Assembly: GCA_017548825.1 (NCBI GenBank)
Contig: JAFYZG010000165.1
Span: 1 to 60,457, forward strand
DNA length: 60,457 nt
Direction of reading: 5' to 3'
Source of the DNA: Oscillospiraceae bacterium
Lineage (GTDB): Bacteria > Bacillota > Clostridia > Oscillospirales > Ruminococcaceae
Shown: positions 2,705 through 40,474 of the stretch, piece after piece
Layout of the letters: each line of letters starts with the position of its first letter
Position numbering within the stretch: the first letter of the stretch is position 1
The notes under the pieces: generated by a model
What the model was told of the DNA's origin: nothing
What the model saw: the letters and a program-made list of their open reading frames with translations, nothing else
The model's database searches: none
Translations under genes and position numbers: made by a program

Positions 2705-3982
2705 TCAGCCGATATATTCCTGACCGCCCATATAAGGACGGAGCGCCTCGGGAATACGGATCCTTCCGTCTTCCTGCAGGTTGTTCTCAAGGAACGCTAT
2801 GAGCATTCTGGGAGGAGCAACGCAGGTGTTATTGAGGGTGTGCGGGAAGTATGTCCCGTTCTCTCCTCTTACCCTGATCTGCAGACGTCTTGCCTGGGCA
2901 TCACCGAGGTTGGAGCAGCTGCCAACCTCGAAGTACTTCTGCTGCCTCGGGCTCCATGCTTCCACGTCACAGCTCTTTACCTTGAGGTCGGCGAGGTCGC
3001 CGCTGCAGCATTCAAGAGTTCTAACAGGAATGTCCAGGGTGCGGAAGAAGTCGACAGTGTTCTGCCAGAGCCTGTCATACCACATCATGCTGTCCTCCGG
3101 CTCGCAGACGACTACCATCTCCTGCTTCTCGAACTGGTGGATCCTGTATACTCCGCGCTCCTCTATGCCGTGAGCGCCGACTTCCTTGCGGAAGCAGGGA
3201 CTGAAGCTGGTCAGGGTCTGAGGCAGCTCGTTCTTCTCAAGGATCTGGTCGATGAACTTGCCGATCATGGAGTGTTCGCTCGTTCCTATGAGGTAAAGAT
3301 CTTCGCCTTCGATCTTATACATCATGTTCTCCATCTCCGCGAAACTCATGACGCCGTTTACCACATTCCCGCGGATCATATACGGAGGGATGTAATAGGT
3401 AAAGCCGCGGCCGATCATGAAATCTCTTGCGTAGCTGAGTATGGAGGAATGAAGCCTGGCTATATCGCCTTTAAGGTAATAGAAGCCGTTTCCGCTGGTC
3501 CTTCTGGCAGAATCGAGGTCGATGCCATCCAGTCTTTCCATGATATCCACATGATATGGGATCTCGAAATCGGGGACGGCAGGTTCACCGAATCTCTCGA
3601 TCTCGACGTTCTCGCTGTCGTCTTTGCCTATGGGCACGCTGGCATCAATGATCTGGGGGATCACCATCATGCGTTTGCGGATCTCTTCTTCCAGGGTCCC
3701 TTCGCTTTCCTCAAGCGTTTCAAGCTCTTTGGCGATGGCAGCGACCTGCTTTTTGACTTCCTCAGCCTCATCGCGTTTTCCCTGGCCCATGAGGGCGCCG
3801 ATCTGCTTGCTGATCTGATTGCGCTGGCTTCTCAGTTCATCGCAGCGGGAACGCGCATTTCTGAACTGCCTGTCGAGGTCTATCACCTCATCCACCAGGA
3901 CCAGTTTTTCGTCCTGGAATTTCTTTCTGATGTTCTCCTTAACGAGTTCGGGATCTGTCCTTATCAGTCTGATGTCGATCAT
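2705..3982 (-). CDS. serS: Seryl-tRNA synthetase
   Basis: MIDIRLIRTDPELVKENIRKK N-terminal coiled-coil arm plus a class II core (GTSEHSM, FSPCFRKEVGAHG, NNTCVAPPRMLIAFLEN). Confidence 0.95.
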   Translation of the reverse strand: MIDIRLIRTDPELVKENIRKKFQDEKLVLVDEVIDLDRQFRNARSRCDELRSQRNQISKQIGALMGQGKRDEAEEVKKQVAAIAKELETLEESEGTLEEEIRKRMMVIPQIIDASVPIGKDDSENVEIERFGEPAVPDFEIPYHVDIMERLDGIDLDSARRTSGNGFYYLKGDIARLHSSILSYARDFMIGRGFTYYIPPYMIRGNVVNGVMSFAEMENMMYKIEGEDLYLIGTSEHSMIGKFIDQILEKNELPQTLTSFSPCFRKEVGAHGIEERGVYRIHQFEKQEMVVVCEPEDSMMWYDRLWQNTVDFFRTLDIPVRTLECCSGDLADLKVKSCDVEAWSPRQQKYFEVGSCSNLGDAQARRLQIRVRGENGTYFPHTLNNTCVAPPRMLIAFLENNLQEDGRIRIPEALRPYMGGQEYIG

Positions 3983-4830
3983 TGTTTATCATTTCCTCCG
4001 AGTTTATTGGCAAAATCGAAAAGTTGTTCTTTTGAGTAAAAATCCAGGGAAAGGGTCCCTTTTCCGTCCGAGTATTTGACTTTCACGTTGACTCCCAGAG
4101 CATCCTTTAGGGCAAGCTCGACTTCGCTGGCTACCGGATCGGAAGGAGTTCTTTTTACCGGCTGGCGTGGAGAACTGATCCTTGAAAGTCTTTCCGCCTC
4201 CCTTACAGAGAGGTCTTTTTCTGCGACGAGCTCTGCTACGCGCTGTTTTACCGCGTCGTCGGGGATCGCAAGGATGGCTCTGGCGTGCCCTGCGGTGATC
4301 TTCCCGTCCCGAAGCAGAGAGAGAACGCTGTCAGGAAGGGTGAGGAGCCTCATCGCGTTGGCAACTGCCGGTCTGGACTTGCCGACTCTGGAAGAGATCT
4401 GTTCCTGGGTCCAGCCCTGAGTATCAGCCAACTGCTTATAGCCCTCCGCTTCTTCCACGGGATTGAGATCCTCACGCTGGAGGTTCTCGACTAGAGCGAC
4501 GCTGTACGCGTCCGAATCGGACATCTCGCGGATGATAACGGGGATACGGTCGAGGCCGGCCAGTCTGGATGCTCTCCAGCGTCTCTCGCCTGCTACGATC
4601 TTGTAGGCGCCTCCGGCATCCGGACGCACCAGGATCGGCTGCAGAACGCCGTGTTCTCTGATGGAATCGGCCAGTTCGGCGAGAGATTCGTCTGAAAAGC
4701 TCTTTCGGGGCTGCGATCTGTCGGGACTTATATCCGAGACCGGAAGAAAGGAAGTGCTTTCGGAAGAGACGGAATTGTCTATGAATATCGCGTCCAGGCC
4801 CTTGCCCAGGCCGCCCTGTCTTTTCGCCAT
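3979..4830 (-). CDS. parB: ParB/Spo0J chromosome partitioning protein
   Basis: MAKRQGGLGKGLDAIF N-terminus, ParB box (GERRWRAS) and an HTH region. I prefer the ATG at 4830 (AGGAGG RBS, 1 nt after the parA stop) over the longer ORF starting at 4911. Confidence 0.93.
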   Translation of the reverse strand: MAKRQGGLGKGLDAIFIDNSVSSESTSFLPVSDISPDRSQPRKSFSDESLAELADSIREHGVLQPILVRPDAGGAYKIVAGERRWRASRLAGLDRIPVIIREMSDSDAYSVALVENLQREDLNPVEEAEGYKQLADTQGWTQEQISSRVGKSRPAVANAMRLLTLPDSVLSLLRDGKITAGHARAILAIPDDAVKQRVAELVAEKDLSVREAERLSRISSPRQPVKRTPSDPVASEVELALKDALGVNVKVKYSDGKGTLSLDFYSKEQLFDFANKLGGNDKQ

Positions 4831-5929: not shown

Positions 5930-8900
5930 ATGCTTGAATTAAGAGAGATAATAAAGGACTATCCGGCGGGAAATGATACGGTCCATGCCCTTAAAGGAAT
6001 CGATCTCGCCTTCAGAAGTAACGAATTCGTGTCTATTCTGGGCCCGTCGGGGTGCGGAAAGACAACGCTGCTCAACATAATAGGCGGGCTGGACGGGTAC
6101 ACGTCCGGAGACCTGATCATAAACGGAACGTCCACAAAGAAATACAAGGACAGGGACTGGGACACATACAGGAACCACTCCGTGGGTTTCGTGTTCCAGA
6201 ACTATAACCTGATACCGCATCAGTCCGTTCTTAAGAACGTTGAACTGGCTCTGAGCCTCTCCGGAGTCAGGGGGAAAAGCAGAAGACAGCGGGCAGAGGA
6301 GGCTCTGACCGCCGTCGGACTCGCTGATCAGTTCAATAAAAGGCCTGCGGAGATGTCGGGAGGGCAGATGCAGAGAGTCGCTATCGCCAGAGCGCTGGTA
6401 AACGACCCGGAGATCATCCTTCTGGATGAGCCTACAGGCGCGCTCGATACCGAGACGGGCATCATGGTCATGGAGATCCTGAAAAAGGTGGCGGCAGACA
6501 GACTTGTAGTCATGGTCACGCACAACCCGGAACTGGCTGAGAGGTATTCGACAAGGATAGTCAGGATGCTGGACGGGAAGATCATAAGCGACAGCAGACC
6601 TCTGGAGGAGGAAGAGAAGGAACAGGAACGAAAGCTTGAGGAGGAAAAAGCCGCGGCAGATGCCAGGAAAAAGATGCCGAGGATGAAACTCTCCACGGCA
6701 TTCGGTCTGTCTTTGAACAACCTGTTCACAAAAAGAAGAAGAACTATCCTGACTTCAATGGCAGGAAGTATCGGAATAATCGGGATAGCCCTGATCTATG
6801 CGGTATCCCAGGGGACAGAGAACTATATAGACAGCGTACAGGAGGAAGCGCTCTCGTCATATCCGCTCACGATTACAGCGGAAACAGCGGACATGGCCTC
6901 CATGATGTCGGCATTTGCGTCCATGAACAGCGCAAAGGGGGAAGAAGTCGCGGAAAACAGTATAGAAGAGGTAAACGTGACAGCCAGCGTCTTCCAGGGG
7001 ATCGGGACAAACGACCTCCGGGCCTTCAAAGAACATCTGGAGAGCACGTACTCCGAGATAGAAAACGATGTCAACACAGTTAGATATACATACCCGGTCA
7101 CTCCCAGAGTATATGCATATGACGTCAAAGGAGATCTGATCCTGGTCAACCCGAGCAATCTCATGGGGACCATAATGGGTGGATCTTATTCATCTTCTTT
7201 CGGATCAATGATGTCAGGCAGCCTTTTCAGCGAGATGATGGATGATCCGGAGCTGATTAACGAGCAGTATGAGACGGTGGCGGGAAGACTTCCGGAGAGA
7301 TATGACGAACTGCTCATGGTACTCACGGACAAGGCACACATCACCGATTTCCTTGAATACGTTGTAGGTCTCAAGGATGTGGAAGAACTGAGCAGCATGG
7401 TCAAGAGCATCATGTCGGGAGAGGCCACGGGACTGGAGTACGACGAGGAAAAAAGGATCTATTCATATGATGAGCTCCTTGGGCTTGATCTGAGGCTCGT
7501 AAATGTTCCTGACCTGTACAGATTCAACAGCGAGTACGGCGTCTGGGAGGATATGTCAGAAGACAAGGAATTCATGAAAGAGGCCTTTGAAAGCGCCGAG
7601 CGGCTGAAGATCGTCGGGATCGTCGCGCCTGCGGCAGGATCGACATCAAATGCCCTGAATCCGGGCATTTGCTATCTGCCGTCTCTGACTCTGCATGTCA
7701 TGGAGAAGTCTTCCGCATCGGAGATGGTCTCGAATCAGCTGCTGGACAGTGAAAAGGACGTCATTTCCGGCAAAACATTCGAAGAGCTGAATAAAGAGAA
7801 CGGCCCGTCGCTCGATCTGGACAACATGATCTCCGTGGACACAAAAAAGCTCTCGTCCGCCTTCAGCGTCAAGGTAGATACGAAAGCAGTCGAGAACTTT
7901 GTCAAAAACTATGTCGACGAAGTGATGAGAGATGTCAGTGTAGAGGACAGTTCCGCAGCGTACGGCGATCTTTCCACGCTGATGAAAGAACTGGCGGGAG
8001 GGCTGACCGGATATGCGGTCGCTTCCGGGGAAGCTCTTCCTGCAGATGCTTCTCTCGGAGGGGCAGGGAAGACGGTGCTTCTGAAAAGGAGCAGCTGTCA
8101 GACCCTTGTTTCCCAGTATCTGGCGTCAGAAGGGGTCCCGCAGAAGATATCGGCGCTGGCAGCAGGTTATGAGCTGCCGGATGAAGTACTGGAGCCGGTC
8201 ATCGCGCCGCTGCTCACTAACGCTCTATCGGTCTATATCAGCGATTTTCCTTCAAATCACGGGGACATCTGGGCCAGAAGAGAGGAGCTTGCAGCATCAG
8301 GGATCACGCTGGACGGTGATACCGCGTTATTGTCCGAAGCTGCAGCGGAGGAGATAAGCTATCAGGCGAGCTCCGGAGCGCTCGCGACCTCTGTAGTCGG
8401 AGAAATGGCCAAGGTCATGACTGCAGCGCAGGGAATGAAGGAAGTCAGAGCTGCGCTGAACGATATACCAAACAGGCTCACGAAGCTTATGGCCGGATCC
8501 ATGAGAGTGAACACTCAGAAAATAGCATCCGCGTTCAAGTTCAACCTGACGGAGGAGGAACTGACAAGGCTGATGTCCGCGTATTCATCCGCAGGAACGC
8601 AGAGATCATACGAGGGAAATCTGCGGGATCTCGGATACAGCAGCCCGGATGACCCGAATGCCATCATCATCTACCTCAAGGATTTCGACGGAAAAGAGGA
8701 TTTTAAACAGTATATAGACAGATACAACAAAGATGCCGAGGAAAAGGGGGAGGACGACAGAGTCATACGGTATACAGACATGACAGGGGTTCTGATGGCT
8801 TCCGTAAAGACGATACTTGACGCGATAACATACGTTCTGATAGCCTTCGTCTCCATATCCCTCATAGTTTCTTCGATAATGATAGGGGTGATAACGCTGA

Positions 8901-13686: not shown

Positions 13687-13774
13687 TGGCGGAGAGTCAG
13701 GGATTCGAACCCTGGAGACCTTTCGGTCTACAGCATTTCGAGTGCTGCACCTTCGACCACTCGGACAACTCTCC
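13687..13774 (-). tRNA. tRNA-Ser (anticodon CGA), long variable arm, CCA encoded
   Basis: The reverse complement reads GGAGAGTTGTCCGAGTGGTCGAAGGTGCAGCACTCGAAATGCTGTAGACCGAAAGGTCTCCAGGGTTCGAATCCCTGACTCTCCGCCA. The anticodon loop is CTCGAAA. Confidence 0.93.
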
Positions 13775-36295: not shown

Positions 36296-36324
36296 TTGCC
36301 AAATAAAGGTCAAAAGAATACAAT
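36296..36324 (+). promoter_or_regulatory. Sigma-A promoter of metG
   Basis: TTGCCA (36296-36301), 17 nt, TACAAT (36319-36324). Confidence 0.6.
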
Positions 36325-36356: not shown

Positions 36357-38297
36357 TTGCAGATGGAAAAGAAGCCCTATTATATTACGACTGCGATCGC
36401 GTATGCATCCGCAAAGCCTCATATCGGAAACACGTATGAGATCGTTCTGGCGGACGCTATCGCCCGTTTCCGCAGGGAACAGGGATATGACGTGAGATTC
36501 CAGACGGGAACCGATGAGCATGGCGAGAAGATCGAACAGAAAGCCATTGCTGCTGGAATGTCACCGAAGGAATACGTCGACCAGGTCGCCGGTGTGATCA
36601 GGGATATCTGGGATCTGATGGACACGACATACGACAGATTCATCAGGACCACGGACGAGGATCACGAAGAGCAGGTGCGGAAGATGTTCCGCAAGATGTA
36701 CGAGAAGGGCGACATCTACAAAGGCTACTACGAAGGCTGGTACTGCACGCCCGACGAGTCTTTCTGGACCGACTCACAGGTCGTGGACGGAAAGTGTCCC
36801 GAATGCGGCCGTCCTGTCGTGCGCGCAAAGGAAGAAGCATATTTCTTCCGTATGAGCAAATATGCCGACCGACTCATTGAGCATATAAACACACACCCCG
36901 AATTCATCCAGCCCGTATCCAGGAAGAATGAGATGATGAACAACTTCCTGCTTCCGGGACTGCAGGATCTCTGCGTGTCCAGAAGCTCCTTCAAGTGGGG
37001 CATTCCGGTGGACTTCGACGAGGGACATGTGGTCTACGTGTGGCTGGATGCGCTCAGCAACTATGTGACCGGGCTTGGTTATGATGCTGACGGAAACAAC
37101 GGCGAACTGTACGAAAAATACTGGCCTGCCGATCTGCACCTGATCGGAAAAGACATAGTAAGGTTCCATACCATATACTGGCCGATCTTCCTGATGAGCC
37201 TGGATATTCCGCTGCCCAAGCAGGTGTTCGGACACCCGTGGCTGCTGATGTCCGGAGGAAAGATGTCCAAGTCCACCGGCAATGTCATGTATGCCGATGA
37301 TCTGGTGGAACTTTTCGGAGTTGACGCGATAAGGTATTTCGTCCTTCACGAGACTCCGTTTGAGAACGACGGGACCATCACGTGGGATCTGATCACCGAG
37401 AGAGTGAACACGGATCTGGCCAACATACTCGGAAACCTCGTCAACAGGACGATCGCGATGACCAACAGGTATTTCGGCGGAGTCGTCGAAGATGCCGGGG
37501 CTCAGGTGGATCCCGATGCCGAGTTCAAGGATACGATCCTCTCCAGTGTCGCCAAGGTCCAGGAAAAGATGGATGTGCTGCGTGTTGCGGACGCGATCTC
37601 CGCGATATTCGAGATATTCCGCCGCTGCAACAAGTACATAGATGAGACGGAACCCTGGAAGCTTGCGAAGGAGCCTGAGAGTGCCGCAAGGCTTAAGACT
37701 GTGCTCTATAATCTTGTTGAAGGCATCGTAATCGGCGCTTCACTGCTGAAGAGCTTCATGCCGTCCACATCCGACAAGATCCTCAGCCAGCTGAACGCTG
37801 AGCACCGCAGCCTGGATAGCATGACCGAGTTCGGTCTCTACCCCAGCGGAAACAAGGTCACCGACGCCCCTGAGATCCTGTTCGCCCGTCTTGATCCGGA
37901 AGTGATCACTGCTAAGGTCGGGGAGATACAGAAAAAGTACGCGGAACCTGAGCGTCCCAAGCTTGAGCATAAGGAGACCATCAGCATAGATGATTTCGGC
38001 AAGACCGAACTGCGGGTCTGCGAGGTGCTGGACTGCGAGAAGGTCCCGAAAGCGGACAAGCTGCTGAAGCTGACGCTGTTCGACGGAGAGAGAGAACGCA
38101 CAATCGTCTCCGGCATAGCCAAGCAGTATACTCCCGAAGACATGAAGGGGAAGAAGGTCATCTGCGTCGTCAACCTCGCACCGCATTCGTTCCGCGGCAT
38201 CGAGAGCGAAGGAATGCTCCTTGCCAGCGAGACGGACGGAGTGCCCAGGGTAGTCTTCGTGGATGCTGACGTGCCGGCAGGCAGCGAGATTCACTGA
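36357..38297 (+). CDS. metG: Methionyl-tRNA synthetase (with C-terminal tRNA-binding/EMAP domain)
   Basis: YITTAIAYASAKPHIGN (HIGH region), a KMSKS motif (GGKMSKSTGN), the Zn knuckle CPECGRP and a C-terminal Trbp111-like domain. The start is TTG 36357 or ATG 36363. Confidence 0.95.
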   Translation: MQMEKKPYYITTAIAYASAKPHIGNTYEIVLADAIARFRREQGYDVRFQTGTDEHGEKIEQKAIAAGMSPKEYVDQVAGVIRDIWDLMDTTYDRFIRTTDEDHEEQVRKMFRKMYEKGDIYKGYYEGWYCTPDESFWTDSQVVDGKCPECGRPVVRAKEEAYFFRMSKYADRLIEHINTHPEFIQPVSRKNEMMNNFLLPGLQDLCVSRSSFKWGIPVDFDEGHVVYVWLDALSNYVTGLGYDADGNNGELYEKYWPADLHLIGKDIVRFHTIYWPIFLMSLDIPLPKQVFGHPWLLMSGGKMSKSTGNVMYADDLVELFGVDAIRYFVLHETPFENDGTITWDLITERVNTDLANILGNLVNRTIAMTNRYFGGVVEDAGAQVDPDAEFKDTILSSVAKVQEKMDVLRVADAISAIFEIFRRCNKYIDETEPWKLAKEPESAARLKTVLYNLVEGIVIGASLLKSFMPSTSDKILSQLNAEHRSLDSMTEFGLYPSGNKVTDAPEILFARLDPEVITAKVGEIQKKYAEPERPKLEHKETISIDDFGKTELRVCEVLDCEKVPKADKLLKLTLFDGERERTIVSGIAKQYTPEDMKGKKVICVVNLAPHSFRGIESEGMLLASETDGVPRVVFVDADVPAGSEIH

Positions 38298-38309
38298 TAT
38301 AAACACAGG

Positions 38310-38342
38310 AAGGGAGATGTTCTGTCGGGACATCTCCCTTTT
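38310..38342 (+). terminator. Intrinsic terminator after metG (short U-tract)
   Basis: AAGGGAGATGT-loop-ACATCTCCCTT followed by only TT(GG). It ends 26 nt before the next start codon. Confidence 0.6.
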
Positions 38343-38368
38343 GGATAGATAACGGAGGACGAGAACCG

Positions 38369-40402
38369 ATGGCTGAAAAAGAATATGTGTTTGAGACGAC
38401 CGAGAAATACCTGAAGAAGCTGGACGGAGATCTGGCAGGAAGGACTTTCCGCCTGGCCATGGATAACGGCGAGGAATACCAGATACGGTTCCTGGACGGG
38501 GAGATCCTGGAATGGAGAAGAGAAGGAGAGCTGCTTCGCTGGGAGAAGTACGGATGCCTCAAGGCTGACGACAGCACGTTCTTCGTGGCATCCGTCCTCG
38601 GAGGAACTGAAGTATGCACCTGCGTCACCATGGTGATAGATGAGGAGAACAGCCTCGTGACTATGTGCATATCCAGACAGGGGATCCATCCCCTGCGGCC
38701 CAGACTGGCTGAGGTCGAGTATATCTTCGGGGCGATCAGGGTGCCCGGCAGACCGCTGCCTGAAAAGAGACACAGTTTCACCAGAGATCTGGTGGGGAAA
38801 AAGATCGTGTGGCACTATGCAAACGGTTTCATCAACACGCATATCTACCAGAGCGAGAGGTATTACAGGATCGTTCCCCTCACGGACACGAGGGCCCCGG
38901 AAGAGGTCGAAAGGGACAACAGGGAGATCGAGCTCGGACTGCGTCCCAGGGAGATGCTCTATGAAGAACCTGCCAGATTCATCCGGATCAAGGACGGCAT
39001 GTATCTGATCAGCTTCGTAGAGGACAACATGAACAGAGTCGATCCGGGCAGAGGCGGCAACAACATGATCGTCCTGGAGAACCTCAAGGGAGGCGTAGAC
39101 TGCGGAAGAACGTTCTCAGTAAACAGACAGGGCAGGCTGGAGCACGGTTTCTTCCGTGCTTACGGAGAACCGGTGGAGGAAGATTTCCCGATAGAGAATG
39201 AACCTACGCCATACAGGGTCACAGGAGAGAAAACGATGACTATAGCTGTGCTGGGTCCGGAGAGCAGCCTTAAGGCAAGGATCGTCTCCGAGGCGCTGCA
39301 CAGAGGTCATACTGTGACCGGTGATGCAGACACAGCAGATGCTGCAGTCGAGTTCCCGGACGGTGAGATAAAGATCACCCGGAACGGGCAGACAACGGTC
39401 ATGATCCTGCCCGAGAAAACGGATACGGACTACAGAAGGACCGGGTATTACCGGTTCGAAGACGGGAAAGCGCCGTATGCGGAAGAGGGAGATATAGCGA
39501 TGGCTGCTGTGGACATGGCGATGTCCTCCGATCCGGGAACCTTCTTTATAGCATCCGACAAGGTCAGCGAACTGCCCCAGGGATCTGACGGCAGAAGAAG
39601 ATATGTGGCGCAGACGCACAAGGGGATAGCCGGAAAGGTGTTCCATGTCGTGATGGACAGCATGGATGAGTTCGTCGTCCGGTTCCTGACGGATGAGCTG
39701 CTTGAGATGTCGTACAAAGGAGAATTCTTTGAAAAGCACGCCTGCAGCTGTATGGAGTGCGACGACGGGGTATGGTTCGTCACTGTCATGAGGGGAGAAG
39801 AATGCTTCACGATGGTGCTGGACACAGTTCAGGCTCTTGTCACAACAGTGACCACGTCTCTCTACCCCGGAAAGATGCAGATGGTCCGTCACAATATAGG
39901 ATTCGGTGCGATAGCTCAGGCAGGAAAAGACACCGGCCTCATGAGACACTGTTTCACGGAGGATCTGGTAGGTAAAAAAGTCACGTGGCATTACTCACCG
40001 TACGTCAGCATCACACACTGCTACATCTCCGAGAACTATATGAGGTCATCTCTCGGAAAGATGAAGCCGCTTCCTGAAGACGCTCCTGAGGAGGCGGTGT
40101 TCGATGCGATGGACCGCTACCGCAGATGGGGCAGCATCTTCTTCGAGGAGCCCTGTCAGTACATCAGGATCAACAAACATCTTTATGTCGTATGCACGGC
40201 AGAGACCAACAGAAACAGGGTCGATCCGCTGGAAGGCGGAGGTGCCATGGTATATGCCTTCAACACCAGAAGGATGCAGGATTACGGAAGAGGCTTCTTC
40301 ACGGGAATGGCAGAGACATATCCGAATCTTTTCTCGGTGTATGGGGAATGGGATGACGATGAGGATCCGATGGATACAGCAGAGAGCCCGTATAATATCT
40401 GA
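38369..40402 (+). CDS. Hypothetical protein: tandem duplication of a MoaF/PAD-like (calycin-type) double-barrel module
   Basis: GGAGG RBS at 38354-38358. Residues 21-283 and 419-677 are clearly homologous to each other. The family assignment is tentative and was done by eye. Confidence 0.8.
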   Translation: MAEKEYVFETTEKYLKKLDGDLAGRTFRLAMDNGEEYQIRFLDGEILEWRREGELLRWEKYGCLKADDSTFFVASVLGGTEVCTCVTMVIDEENSLVTMCISRQGIHPLRPRLAEVEYIFGAIRVPGRPLPEKRHSFTRDLVGKKIVWHYANGFINTHIYQSERYYRIVPLTDTRAPEEVERDNREIELGLRPREMLYEEPARFIRIKDGMYLISFVEDNMNRVDPGRGGNNMIVLENLKGGVDCGRTFSVNRQGRLEHGFFRAYGEPVEEDFPIENEPTPYRVTGEKTMTIAVLGPESSLKARIVSEALHRGHTVTGDADTADAAVEFPDGEIKITRNGQTTVMILPEKTDTDYRRTGYYRFEDGKAPYAEEGDIAMAAVDMAMSSDPGTFFIASDKVSELPQGSDGRRRYVAQTHKGIAGKVFHVVMDSMDEFVVRFLTDELLEMSYKGEFFEKHACSCMECDDGVWFVTVMRGEECFTMVLDTVQALVTTVTTSLYPGKMQMVRHNIGFGAIAQAGKDTGLMRHCFTEDLVGKKVTWHYSPYVSITHCYISENYMRSSLGKMKPLPEDAPEEAVFDAMDRYRRWGSIFFEEPCQYIRINKHLYVVCTAETNRNRVDPLEGGGAMVYAFNTRRMQDYGRGFFTGMAETYPNLFSVYGEWDDDEDPMDTAESPYNI

Positions 40403-40413
40403 AGTTACAGAAA

Positions 40414-40456
40414 AGACAGACTGCACAGAGCTTTTCAGGCTTTTTGCAGTCTGTCT
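40414..40456. terminator. Bidirectional terminator-like hairpin between convergent genes
   Basis: AGACAGACTGCA-19 nt loop-TGCAGTCTGTCT, flanked by an A-run and TCTTGTCTTCTC. Confidence 0.65.
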
Positions 40457-40474
40457 TCTTGTCTTCTCAGAATA

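Follow-up and report, generated by a model that had tools for sequence, protein, structure and literature searches.

A MoaF-family protein of ruminant-gut Clostridia, probably joined from two genes by loss of a stop codon around the relic of a reductase domain

The genome of an Oscillospiraceae bacterium carries a gene for a 677-residue protein between metG and the convergent tatD, a position confirmed from the open reading frames (ORFs) and the neighbourhood. It lies in contig JAFYZG010000165.1 of GenBank assembly GCA_017548825.1, positions 1 to 60,457; this whole stretch of 60,457 nucleotides is called the window here. The protein has two similar halves separated by a linker, which raises the question of how such a polypeptide arose and what it does. 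The initial annotation considered it an orphan made of two diverged copies of a double-barrel module. Read from its sequence and its relatives, the gene is rather a fusion of an upstream gene coding a MoaF module of one type (M1) with a downstream gene coding a reductase domain followed by a MoaF module of another type (M2), brought about by loss of the intervening stop codon (TGA to ACA). Module anatomy and evolutionary origin, taken jointly, are very likely to be as described. The gene is organized as follows.

38369..40402, + strand: coding sequence of 677 amino acids, an uninterrupted ORF with an ATG start, in the order M1 module, junction, relic domain, M2 module.
38396..39220, + strand: module M1, residues 10-284, with an N-barrel (MoaF) at ~20-123 and a C-barrel (MoaF_C, similar to phenolic acid decarboxylase) at ~134-284.
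39221..39238, + strand: fusion junction ACA GGA GAG AAA ACG ATG (T285 G E K T M290), formerly stop codon, Shine-Dalgarno spacer and start codon, all in frame.
39236..39583, + strand: relic of a PF13460 (NADH-flavin-reductase-like) domain, residues 290-405, ~115 residues, aligned through intermediates.
39584..40399, + strand: module M2, residues 406-677, with an N-barrel at ~419-516 and a C-barrel at ~526-677.

Each half of the protein is one MoaF module composed of two calycin barrels (PF10703 and PF17409), the second of which resembles phenolic acid decarboxylases (PADs). Alignment of residues 13-284 with 409-677 by BLASTP gives 94 identities in 277 positions (34%), 51% positives and E=4e-47, in agreement with the identity of about one third first estimated by eye. 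All motif pairs quoted in the initial annotation are present, and both modules end in Pro-Tyr as it had stated (P281-Y282 and P674-Y675; kept in 38/39 and 36/39 family modules). PF10703 (MoaF) matches the whole protein over two stretches with 68.9 bits (cut-off 23.3), and M1 and M2 taken separately with 46.4 and 29.5 bits. PF17409 (MoaF_C) also matches in two stretches with 36.2 bits (cut-off 22.1), while the individual halves score 21.3 (M1) and 21.4 bits (M2) against the same cut-off. The latter match covers only positions 2-33 of the 113 in the profile, which points to a divergent subfamily specific to Clostridia of the rumen. No NCBIfam family or equivalog was assigned to the protein, and no full-length match to a characterized enzyme with intact catalytic residues was obtained.

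The AlphaFold model of the full-length protein (predicted local distance difference test, pLDDT, 76.7; predicted template modelling score, pTM, 0.66) features four beta-barrels and a folded alpha/beta element between the modules; a single module is modelled with pLDDT 84.6 and pTM 0.85. Foldseek aligns the module model to PDB entry 4q51, the Burkholderia cenocepacia MoaF deposited as "putative molybdenum cofactor biosynthesis protein F" (E=3.6e-13, template modelling scores TMq 0.73 and TMt 0.76 over 282 columns, 18% identity). The 4q51 sequence is also matched in a profile search (E=1.6e-7) and by the whole protein in a PDB sequence search (E=0.008); in the latter search, PCSK9-prodomain matches in the linker (E of 0.15 and weaker) were dismissed as chance. 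About 25 PAD chains follow in the Foldseek comparison with the PDB (E of 2e-4 to 4e-3, probability 1.00, TMt 0.46-0.55), and a third tier comprises other double-barrel calycins, lipocalin-like proteins and avidins. The double-barrel calycin fold proposed earlier, akin to MoaF and PAD, is thus borne out by Pfam, by Foldseek and by a deep profile alignment described below. Each half, as one MoaF unit, has its N- and C-barrel joined by the FGAI...RH segment. However, 4q51 and most MoaF members are single modules of ~280 amino acids, while the window protein has two paralogous modules fused around a dead reductase domain. Membership of the MoaF family says nothing about activity.

The protein is no orphan, contrary to the initial annotation: it has fused, split and unfused relatives in many metagenome-assembled genomes (MAGs) of the ruminant gut. 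A word-indexed search of 5.8 billion proteins returned 12 clusters only, all tandem and 47-99% identical, with orthologues of the window gene at 72-99% identity. An exhaustive search of 1.84 billion representatives with a hidden Markov model (HMM) of the module found 303 proteins at E<=1e-3, of which 73 at E<=1e-30. The family is thus small, and nearly all of its representatives come from Clostridia of the ruminant gut. Its best matches include single modules of 280-300 amino acids, proteins of ~411 amino acids, and proteins of 475-555 amino acids with a NAD(P)H-binding domain or a second MoaF module ahead of the matching one. Scanning one genome per GTDB species yielded 22 loci, nearly all from ruminant gastrointestinal MAGs and labelled Oscillospiraceae, Ruminococcus, Clostridiales, Lachnospiraceae or Bacillota. 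The closest loci, at 93-94% identity, belong to "uncultured Ruminococcus sp. RUG11783" and to an Oscillospiraceae MAG. A tblastn search of annotated plasmids with a canonical single-module MoaF (P0134) gave no match.

HMMs built from the first and from the second modules (M1-HMM and M2-HMM) were searched against all ORFs of the 29 fetched loci, and every module, those of unfused genes included, was clearly assigned to one type. The first half of the window protein scores 534.8 bits with M1-HMM and 180.9 with M2-HMM, the second half 512.8 with M2-HMM and 166.9 with M1-HMM. The following architectures are found.

Fused M1-linker-M2, 677-705 amino acids: window, L001, L005, L007-L010.
Fused M1-M2 with almost no linker, 579-597 amino acids: L003/L015, L004, L006/L017, L013, L016.
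Two genes, M1 (284-293 amino acids) then M2 preceded by ~140 amino acids (409-438 in total): L011, L012, L014.
Three genes, M1, M1, then M2 preceded by ~220 amino acids (495-511 in total): L018, L021, L023 and, independently, L029.
Three separate single-module genes, M1, M1, M2: L026.
Lone M1-type genes: L019, L020, L022, L024, L027, L028.

A neighbour-joining tree of 40 modules separates the M1- and M2-types in two clades. The unfused third gene of L026 and the reductase-fused third genes of L018 and L021 branch at the base of the M2 clade. As unfused genes also fall into the two clades, the halves of the window protein are old paralogues and not the outcome of a recent internal duplication, which corrects the notion of "two copies": elsewhere they are separate adjacent genes, and in the window they were fused by stop loss. 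Genes of the two types adjoin in L011, L012, L014, L018, L021, L023, L026 and L029, and other independent tandem MoaF-MoaF proteins exist.

Several loci carry further members of the family. Distant MoaF-only genes coding 286-291 amino acids adjoin the fused gene in divergent orientation in L013 (4915-5790, -) and L025 (3094-3954, -); their products match PF10703 with E=1e-8 and both M1-HMM and M2-HMM weakly, and may be a third, remoter paralogue type. The loci L018, L021 and L023 start with a second gene coding an intact NAD(P)H-binding domain and a MoaF module (- strand, e.g. L018:1-1421). This gene lies opposite to the three-gene cassette, ~4.5 kb upstream of it, and in the tree it branches outside the M1 and M2 clades. 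The Lachnospiraceae MAG RGIG7066 has two loci with relatives of the gene (L015 and L025): in one of them the fused gene is complete, in the other a gene of 67% identity is truncated where the contig ends. Some genomes thus carry more than one copy.

The window junction retains the anatomy of an intergenic region. It reads PYRV-ACA-GGAGAGAAAACG-ATG, with a Thr codon at the stop position and the Shine-Dalgarno GGAG and ATG still present. The two-gene locus L014 has PYRV-TGA-GGAGGTGAAAGC-ATG with an identical 12-nucleotide in-frame spacing, L011 has PYRV-TAA-GGAGGAACATAAC-ATG and L012 has PYRV-TAA-GGAGGGACGGAAT-ATG. In L018 the sequence is PYRV-TGA, 23 nucleotides, then ATG, and the stop of L021 is also TGA. 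Because the 12-nucleotide spacer is in frame, loss of the stop would have been sufficient to join both proteins. The position of the former stop is occupied by ACA, ACC or AGC in the five closest orthologues, and a sense codon there makes the fusion common to the clade. At the former ATG these orthologues have CTG (L007, L010, L001), CAG (L008) or TAT (L009), and ATG is found in the window only. Internal translation initiation at M290, for which Shine-Dalgarno and ATG are retained, was considered and rejected on this ground: the ATG is probably a fossil rather than a conserved internal start.

The linker descends, as traced through intermediate sequences, from a NAD(P)H-binding reductase domain that is now dead. 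Its intact homologue is the ~220-residue amino-terminal part of the M2-type gene product in L018 and L021, which starts with MKIAVIGATGKAGS and features the motif GATGKAG. This domain matches PF13460 above threshold (E=5.5e-17, 59-63 bits) and the "putative NADH-flavin reductase" 4r01 with E=4e-47, and has a distant kinship to biliverdin-IXbeta/flavin reductase. The ancestor would have been of the type of the atypical short-chain dehydrogenases/reductases (PF13460) 4r01 and 3ew7, and more distantly 1hdo. An intact domain precedes the M2 module in P0031 and P0035 as well, and the linker is found in the place of this domain, after the old start codon and ahead of the M2 module.

Four stages of decay can be distinguished. 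The domain is intact in L018 and L021 (alignment A3). In L014, L011, P0007 and P0010 the same alignment has GADTxxG in place of the motif and a deletion of ~70 core residues. PF13460 is detected below threshold in these intermediates (E=2e-4 to 2.5e-3; 4r01 at E=4e-4), and the longer linkers of P0007 and P0008 score 18-22 bits with a cut-off of 27.2. In the third stage, with GPESSLK in the window or GQDSSLM in L001, ~26 more residues are deleted, for a loss of ~95 core residues in all. Essentially no domain is left in P0006, P0009, P0011 and P0012. The window protein keeps the first beta-alpha unit (TIAVLG...RIVSEALHRGHTVTG), RRTGYY, and GDIAMAAVDMA with its C-terminal D-A-A-V-D helix; invariant V, G, R, D, R-x-G and D-A-A-D columns of alignment A3 connect it to the intact domain. 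The linker is predicted to form a small alpha/beta fold in the full-length model (pLDDT 81-88). In contrast to PF13460 proteins, it has no GxxGxxG dinucleotide motif after the first strand (GPESSLK in its place) and, searched alone, yields no Pfam match, PF13460 being absent even at E<=10. It should not be labelled a NAD(P)-binding domain. The remark of the initial annotation that no cofactor motif was recognizable was incomplete in this respect, as it overlooked a relic Rossmann domain in residues ~290-405 whose relatives keep GATGKAG.

Selection acts differently on modules and linker. The ratio of non-synonymous to synonymous substitution rates (dN/dS), estimated from unsaturated comparisons only (window, L007 and L008; dS 0.35-0.63), is 0.04-0.05 for either module and 0.16-0.24 for the linker, a 4-5-fold relaxation. 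Six related genomes keep the frame intact, with a dN/dS of 0.03-0.06 for the two modules at dS 0.35-0.55. Strong purifying selection and retention of the same residue set indicate that both MoaF modules are functional, while the linker appears relaxed but not neutral, consistent with a structural spacer. The case stands out as an unusually clean stop-loss fusion, in which the Shine-Dalgarno and old start remain legible inside the protein and living intermediates display the stepwise erasure of a domain. Its architecture is new within a known, uncharacterized family and is not a new kind of system.

The conserved residues of the modules were identified from 39 sequences of both types (kept at >=90%, M1 numbering). 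They are G24, D32, E36, F41, C85, D91, L96 and T98 in the N-barrel; F120-G-A-I123 and R134-H135 in the segment between barrels; and G143, K145, W148, Y150, T157, H158, Y160, R167, E200-P201, I207, Y212, E218, N222, G229-G230, N238, D244 and R247 in the C-barrel, followed by the carboxyl-terminal P281-Y282. Candidate pocket residues of M1 are R134, H135, W148, Y150, N156, H158, Y160, R167, E200, E218, N222 and R247, with R526, H527, W540, Y542, H550, Y552, R559, E594, E612, N616 and R641 as counterparts in M2. Just two positions, F154/V546 and N156/I548 (M1/M2), are strictly type-specific, so the two types plausibly differ at one pocket-lining position (N156/I548).

PADs (PF05870, EC 4.1.1.102; B. 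subtilis PadC 2p8g/4alb, L. plantarum 2gc9/2w2a) have the same flattened beta-barrel as the C-barrel, and the first-hairpin motif LVGKxxxWxYxxGF matches FIGSHMIYTYENGW. A C-barrel profile of 92 sequences aligns to B. subtilis PadC with E=9.7e-5 over 110 columns in hhalign (the PadC sequence was confirmed against 2p8g and 4alb), while a shallow module profile of 12 sequences gave a non-significant E=0.094. The catalytic residues of PAD, which we take to be Tyr11, Tyr13, Arg41 and Glu64 in B. subtilis numbering, and two further positions map by hhalign as follows.

PAD Tyr11: W148/W540, a Trp in 39/39 modules.
PAD Tyr13: Y150/Y542, kept in 39/39.
PAD Tyr19: N156 in M1, I548 in M2.
PAD Arg32: R167.
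PAD Arg41: E195, non-conserved, inside a helical insertion.
PAD Glu64: E218/E612, kept in 39/39.

PADs are single-barrel homodimers of 160-180 amino acids, while the window protein totals four barrels, as each module has an N-barrel in addition. The likeness is limited to pocket architecture at most: the protein is neither a PAD nor a member of that family, and plausibly has its pocket where the active site of PAD lies.

The genomic contexts of the gene vary. Fused genes have no conserved neighbourhood across clades: the order metG-X-tatD-DUF4358-GDSL-lepA, where X is the fused gene, is confined to the clade of the window (L001, L007-L010), and the other fused clades sit elsewhere. Inference from context rests in consequence on unfused, split and other-clade relatives. 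The earlier argument that the gene marks a breakpoint in Bacillus-type metS-yabD synteny proved weak, as tatD is convergent, ends a GDSL-DUF4358-tatD unit, and metG-X-tatD is clade-limited. The other members of that unit (window:41317-42968, -) code for a GDSL/SGNH hydrolase with an amino-terminal hydrophobic segment and for DUF4358, and are conserved with tatD throughout the clade.

Among the relatives, a BD-FAE esterase lies directly upstream in L005, an S9/AXE1-like hydrolase in L014 and a glycoside hydrolase (GH) of family GH5 in L016. A COesterase directly adjoins in L019/L020 and L024, and PF00756 esterases, with or without CBM48, occur in L018, L024 and L004. GH51, GH95, GH4, regulators of MarR, GntR/LacI and AraC types, solute-binding proteins and sugar ATP-binding cassette (ABC) permeases are also found nearby. 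Roughly half of the ~14 independent contexts are of plant-cell-wall type, a raw tally and not an enrichment relative to background.

Some neighbouring genes deserve mention on their own. In L005, a 735-amino-acid ORF (6061-8268, +) with no Pfam match overlaps the end of the fused MoaF gene of P0008, its start lying 4 nucleotides ahead of that gene's stop; translational coupling is probable, and the product could be a partner protein. Two genes from the fused gene of L013, a 400-amino-acid fusion of flavin-reductase-like, rubredoxin-like and rubrerythrin domains is encoded (3568-4770, +). Small flavoproteins of the nitroreductase family (L026:5408-5932, +) and PNPOx-like type (L029:4246-4653, -) are coded directly beside unfused MoaF clusters. 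The M2-type gene of L026 lacks the NAD(P)H-binding domain, and the neighbouring flavoproteins might be alternative redox partners.

The explanation that best accounts for these data as a whole, to which we assign a probability of about 0.6, combines stop-loss fusion, a decayed reductase, a pseudo-heterodimer of M1 and M2 and a guess at a phenolic ligand. The origin is its well-documented part. An upstream gene coded the M1 module and a downstream gene the NAD(P)H-binding reductase domain followed by M2. Change of the intervening TGA to ACA joined the two proteins in one chain. The reductase domain then lost its glycine-rich motif and most of its core, leaving a compact spacer of ~115 residues, and was deleted altogether in sister lineages. 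M1 and M2 would form a covalently linked pseudo-heterodimer that replaces a complex of separately encoded subunits, an arrangement whose odds are about even and which is suggested by Rosetta-stone logic, operon adjacency and the independent tandem fusions.

Each C-barrel would hold a small-molecule pocket at the PAD active-site position, for a phenolic or hydroxycinnamoyl compound from hemicellulose de-esterification that is bound or converted without cofactor. In the ancestral three-gene cassette (M1, M1, reductase-M2) this step would have been coupled to NAD(P)H-dependent reduction, a coupling lost in the window lineage. The choice of a hydroxycinnamate, a vinylphenol or a similar plant phenolic as substrate is prompted by the PAD-like pocket, the partner of flavin/biliverdin-reductase type and the esterase-rich neighbourhoods; made by analogy, it is tentative and would more probably prove wrong than right.

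A bolder and improbable extension is that M1, M2 and the flavin-reductase-like domain constitute an unrecognized enzyme system of herbivore-gut Clostridia acting on hydroxycinnamates or vinylphenols set free by feruloyl and acetyl esterases. A quinone-methide-type intermediate would be formed or bound in PAD-like fashion and then receive a hydride. The window protein would be a derived version devoid of reductase, which carries out a cofactor-free half-reaction only or relies on a reductase in trans. If true, this would provide a molecular basis for the long-observed rumen hydrogenation or decarboxylation of side chains of plant phenolic acids.

In lactobacilli, the PadA decarboxylase, the HcrAB reductase and the vinylphenol reductase VprA that act on hydroxycinnamates are separate and separately regulated (PMC10295242). 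The parallel, a PAD-fold protein coupled to NAD(P)H-dependent side-chain reduction, is conceptual only and implies no homology to HcrB or VprA. In contrast to the lactobacilli, the PAD-like modules and reductase domain here belong ancestrally to one operon or one polypeptide.

Several observations weigh against the favoured explanation. The window gene is surrounded by housekeeping genes (metG, tatD, lepA) rather than placed in a carbohydrate locus, and neither esterase nor glycosidase is present in about half of the contexts surveyed. Only two of the four PAD catalytic residues are kept, Tyr11 being replaced by Trp and Arg41 having no conserved counterpart, and PF05870 (PA_decarbox) gives no Pfam match even at E<=10 with the whole protein or its halves. 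The conserved D/E/W/Y/H/R/N set would fit a sugar ligand equally well. The full-length model, with a pTM of only 0.66, says little about the packing of M1 against M2. The branches of the tree are without support values, and as split forms are nested within the fused ones it does not fix the number or direction of fusion and fission events. Finally, searches of the open literature for MoaF or PF10703 gave nothing on function, and no member of the family has a known biochemical role.

Among the alternatives, the best survivor is that the barrels sequester or carry a hydrophobic or aromatic molecule in the manner of lipocalins or avidins, without chemistry, for instance as a buffer against toxic plant phenolics or as a carrier of substrate to partner enzymes. 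This is unlikely but deserves attention: the fold class is dominated by binding proteins, lipocalin-like proteins and avidins being among the Foldseek matches, the changes at Arg41 and Tyr11 of PAD are those noted above, and loss of the reductase domain has been tolerated. However, the dense invariant set of charged and polar residues (R-H, H, E, E, N, R) found in both types at a dN/dS of ~0.04 is more typical of a catalytic site, and ancestral covalent coupling to a reductase suggests turnover of a substrate.

Somewhat less likely still is a carbohydrate-directed role, in which the ligand of the modules is a sugar or oligosaccharide that they bind or modify, for example by an isomerase-, lyase- or esterase-like reaction with hemicellulose fragments, and the ancestral reductase would have acted on a keto-sugar. 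The loci with GH4, GH5, GH51, GH95, sugar-binding proteins, ABC permeases and GntR/LacI-type and AraC regulators agree with it, as do conserved W/Y/H/D/E/R/N residues typical of sugar sites. On the other hand, PADs are the only characterized structural relatives and two of their catalytic positions are kept, and esterases of kinds that set free acyl or phenolic groups are the commonest direct neighbours. Moreover, the intact reductase domain belongs to the flavin/biliverdin-reductase type, in which the known members use conjugated or quinonoid compounds as substrates, not sugars.

Duplication in place, by which a single MoaF gene doubled internally, diverged to 34% identity and acquired a new linker, would explain the homology of the halves over their full length, and tandem MoaF-MoaF proteins do arise repeatedly in the superfamily. 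It is nevertheless very unlikely: each half is closer to separate genes of its own type (535 vs 181 and 513 vs 167 bits) in a two-clade tree, the junction retains a translated stop position, the Shine-Dalgarno spacer and ATG, and the linker is homologous to the amino-terminal domain of unfused M2-type genes.

A role in molybdenum cofactor biosynthesis, which has in its favour only the name attached to 4q51 and to the Pfam family, is barely credible, since no moa, moe or mog genes or molybdoenzymes were seen in the ~14 surveyed neighbourhoods and no NCBIfam equivalog was found; the name MoaF presumably derives from the Klebsiella monoamine (moa) regulon and not from cofactor synthesis. A decaying fusion artefact or pseudogene devoid of current function, as the visible degeneration of the middle domain might suggest, can be set aside as next to impossible given the frame kept intact in related genomes, the low dN/dS of both modules, a good ribosome-binding site and confidently predicted folds.

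For the Pfam family MoaF there is a solved structure; its name is misleading, and it has no known function. The locus and its relatives provide three handles on it: a functional unit that is probably a hetero-complex of two paralogue types, fused by nature; an ancestral partner that is a NAD(P)H-dependent reductase domain; and company, in rumen Clostridia, of carbohydrate esterases and hemicellulases. They offer the first concrete functional leads for the family and a short list of testable substrates. For annotation, the labels "molybdenum-cofactor biosynthesis" and "NAD-binding" are best avoided for such proteins.

The immediate flanks of the window gene contain the following elements.

38354..38359, + strand: ribosome-binding site GGAGGA, 9 nucleotides 5' of the ATG at 38369, read in the sequence.
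38312..38342, + strand: hairpin GGGAGATGT-N9-ACATCTCCC followed by TTTT, with a 9-bp stem, directly behind the metG stop (38295-38297) and just ~25 nucleotides ahead of the ribosome-binding site, read in the sequence.
40413..40457, no strand assigned: 12-bp inverted repeat AAGACAGACTGC ... GCAGTCTGTCTT, between the convergent stops of the gene (40400-40402) and tatD (40475).

The hairpin is probably a weak or partial metG terminator. It is absent from the output of a consensus scan for promoters and terminators, a scan whose number of sites was no higher than expected by chance. The hairpin could act as a leaky terminator that sets the expression ratio of metG to the MoaF gene. No promoter-like site was found between the hairpin and the start codon, and the gene may thus be transcribed by read-through from metG. 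The inverted repeat, overlapped by a terminator-like site of the consensus scan at 40436-40453, is probably a bidirectional terminator. The 677-residue protein has no signal peptide and is presumably cytoplasmic.

Nothing points to horizontal transfer into the metG-tatD gap: GC content and skew show no anomaly across the gene relative to its neighbours, and no mobile-element genes were seen. The metG leader is short, after a promoter-like site at 36296-36324. An Rfam scan of the 60-kb window detected no riboswitch or T-box near the gene or ahead of metG; its sole matches are three tRNA genes at 2369-2517 and 13690-13774 (-).

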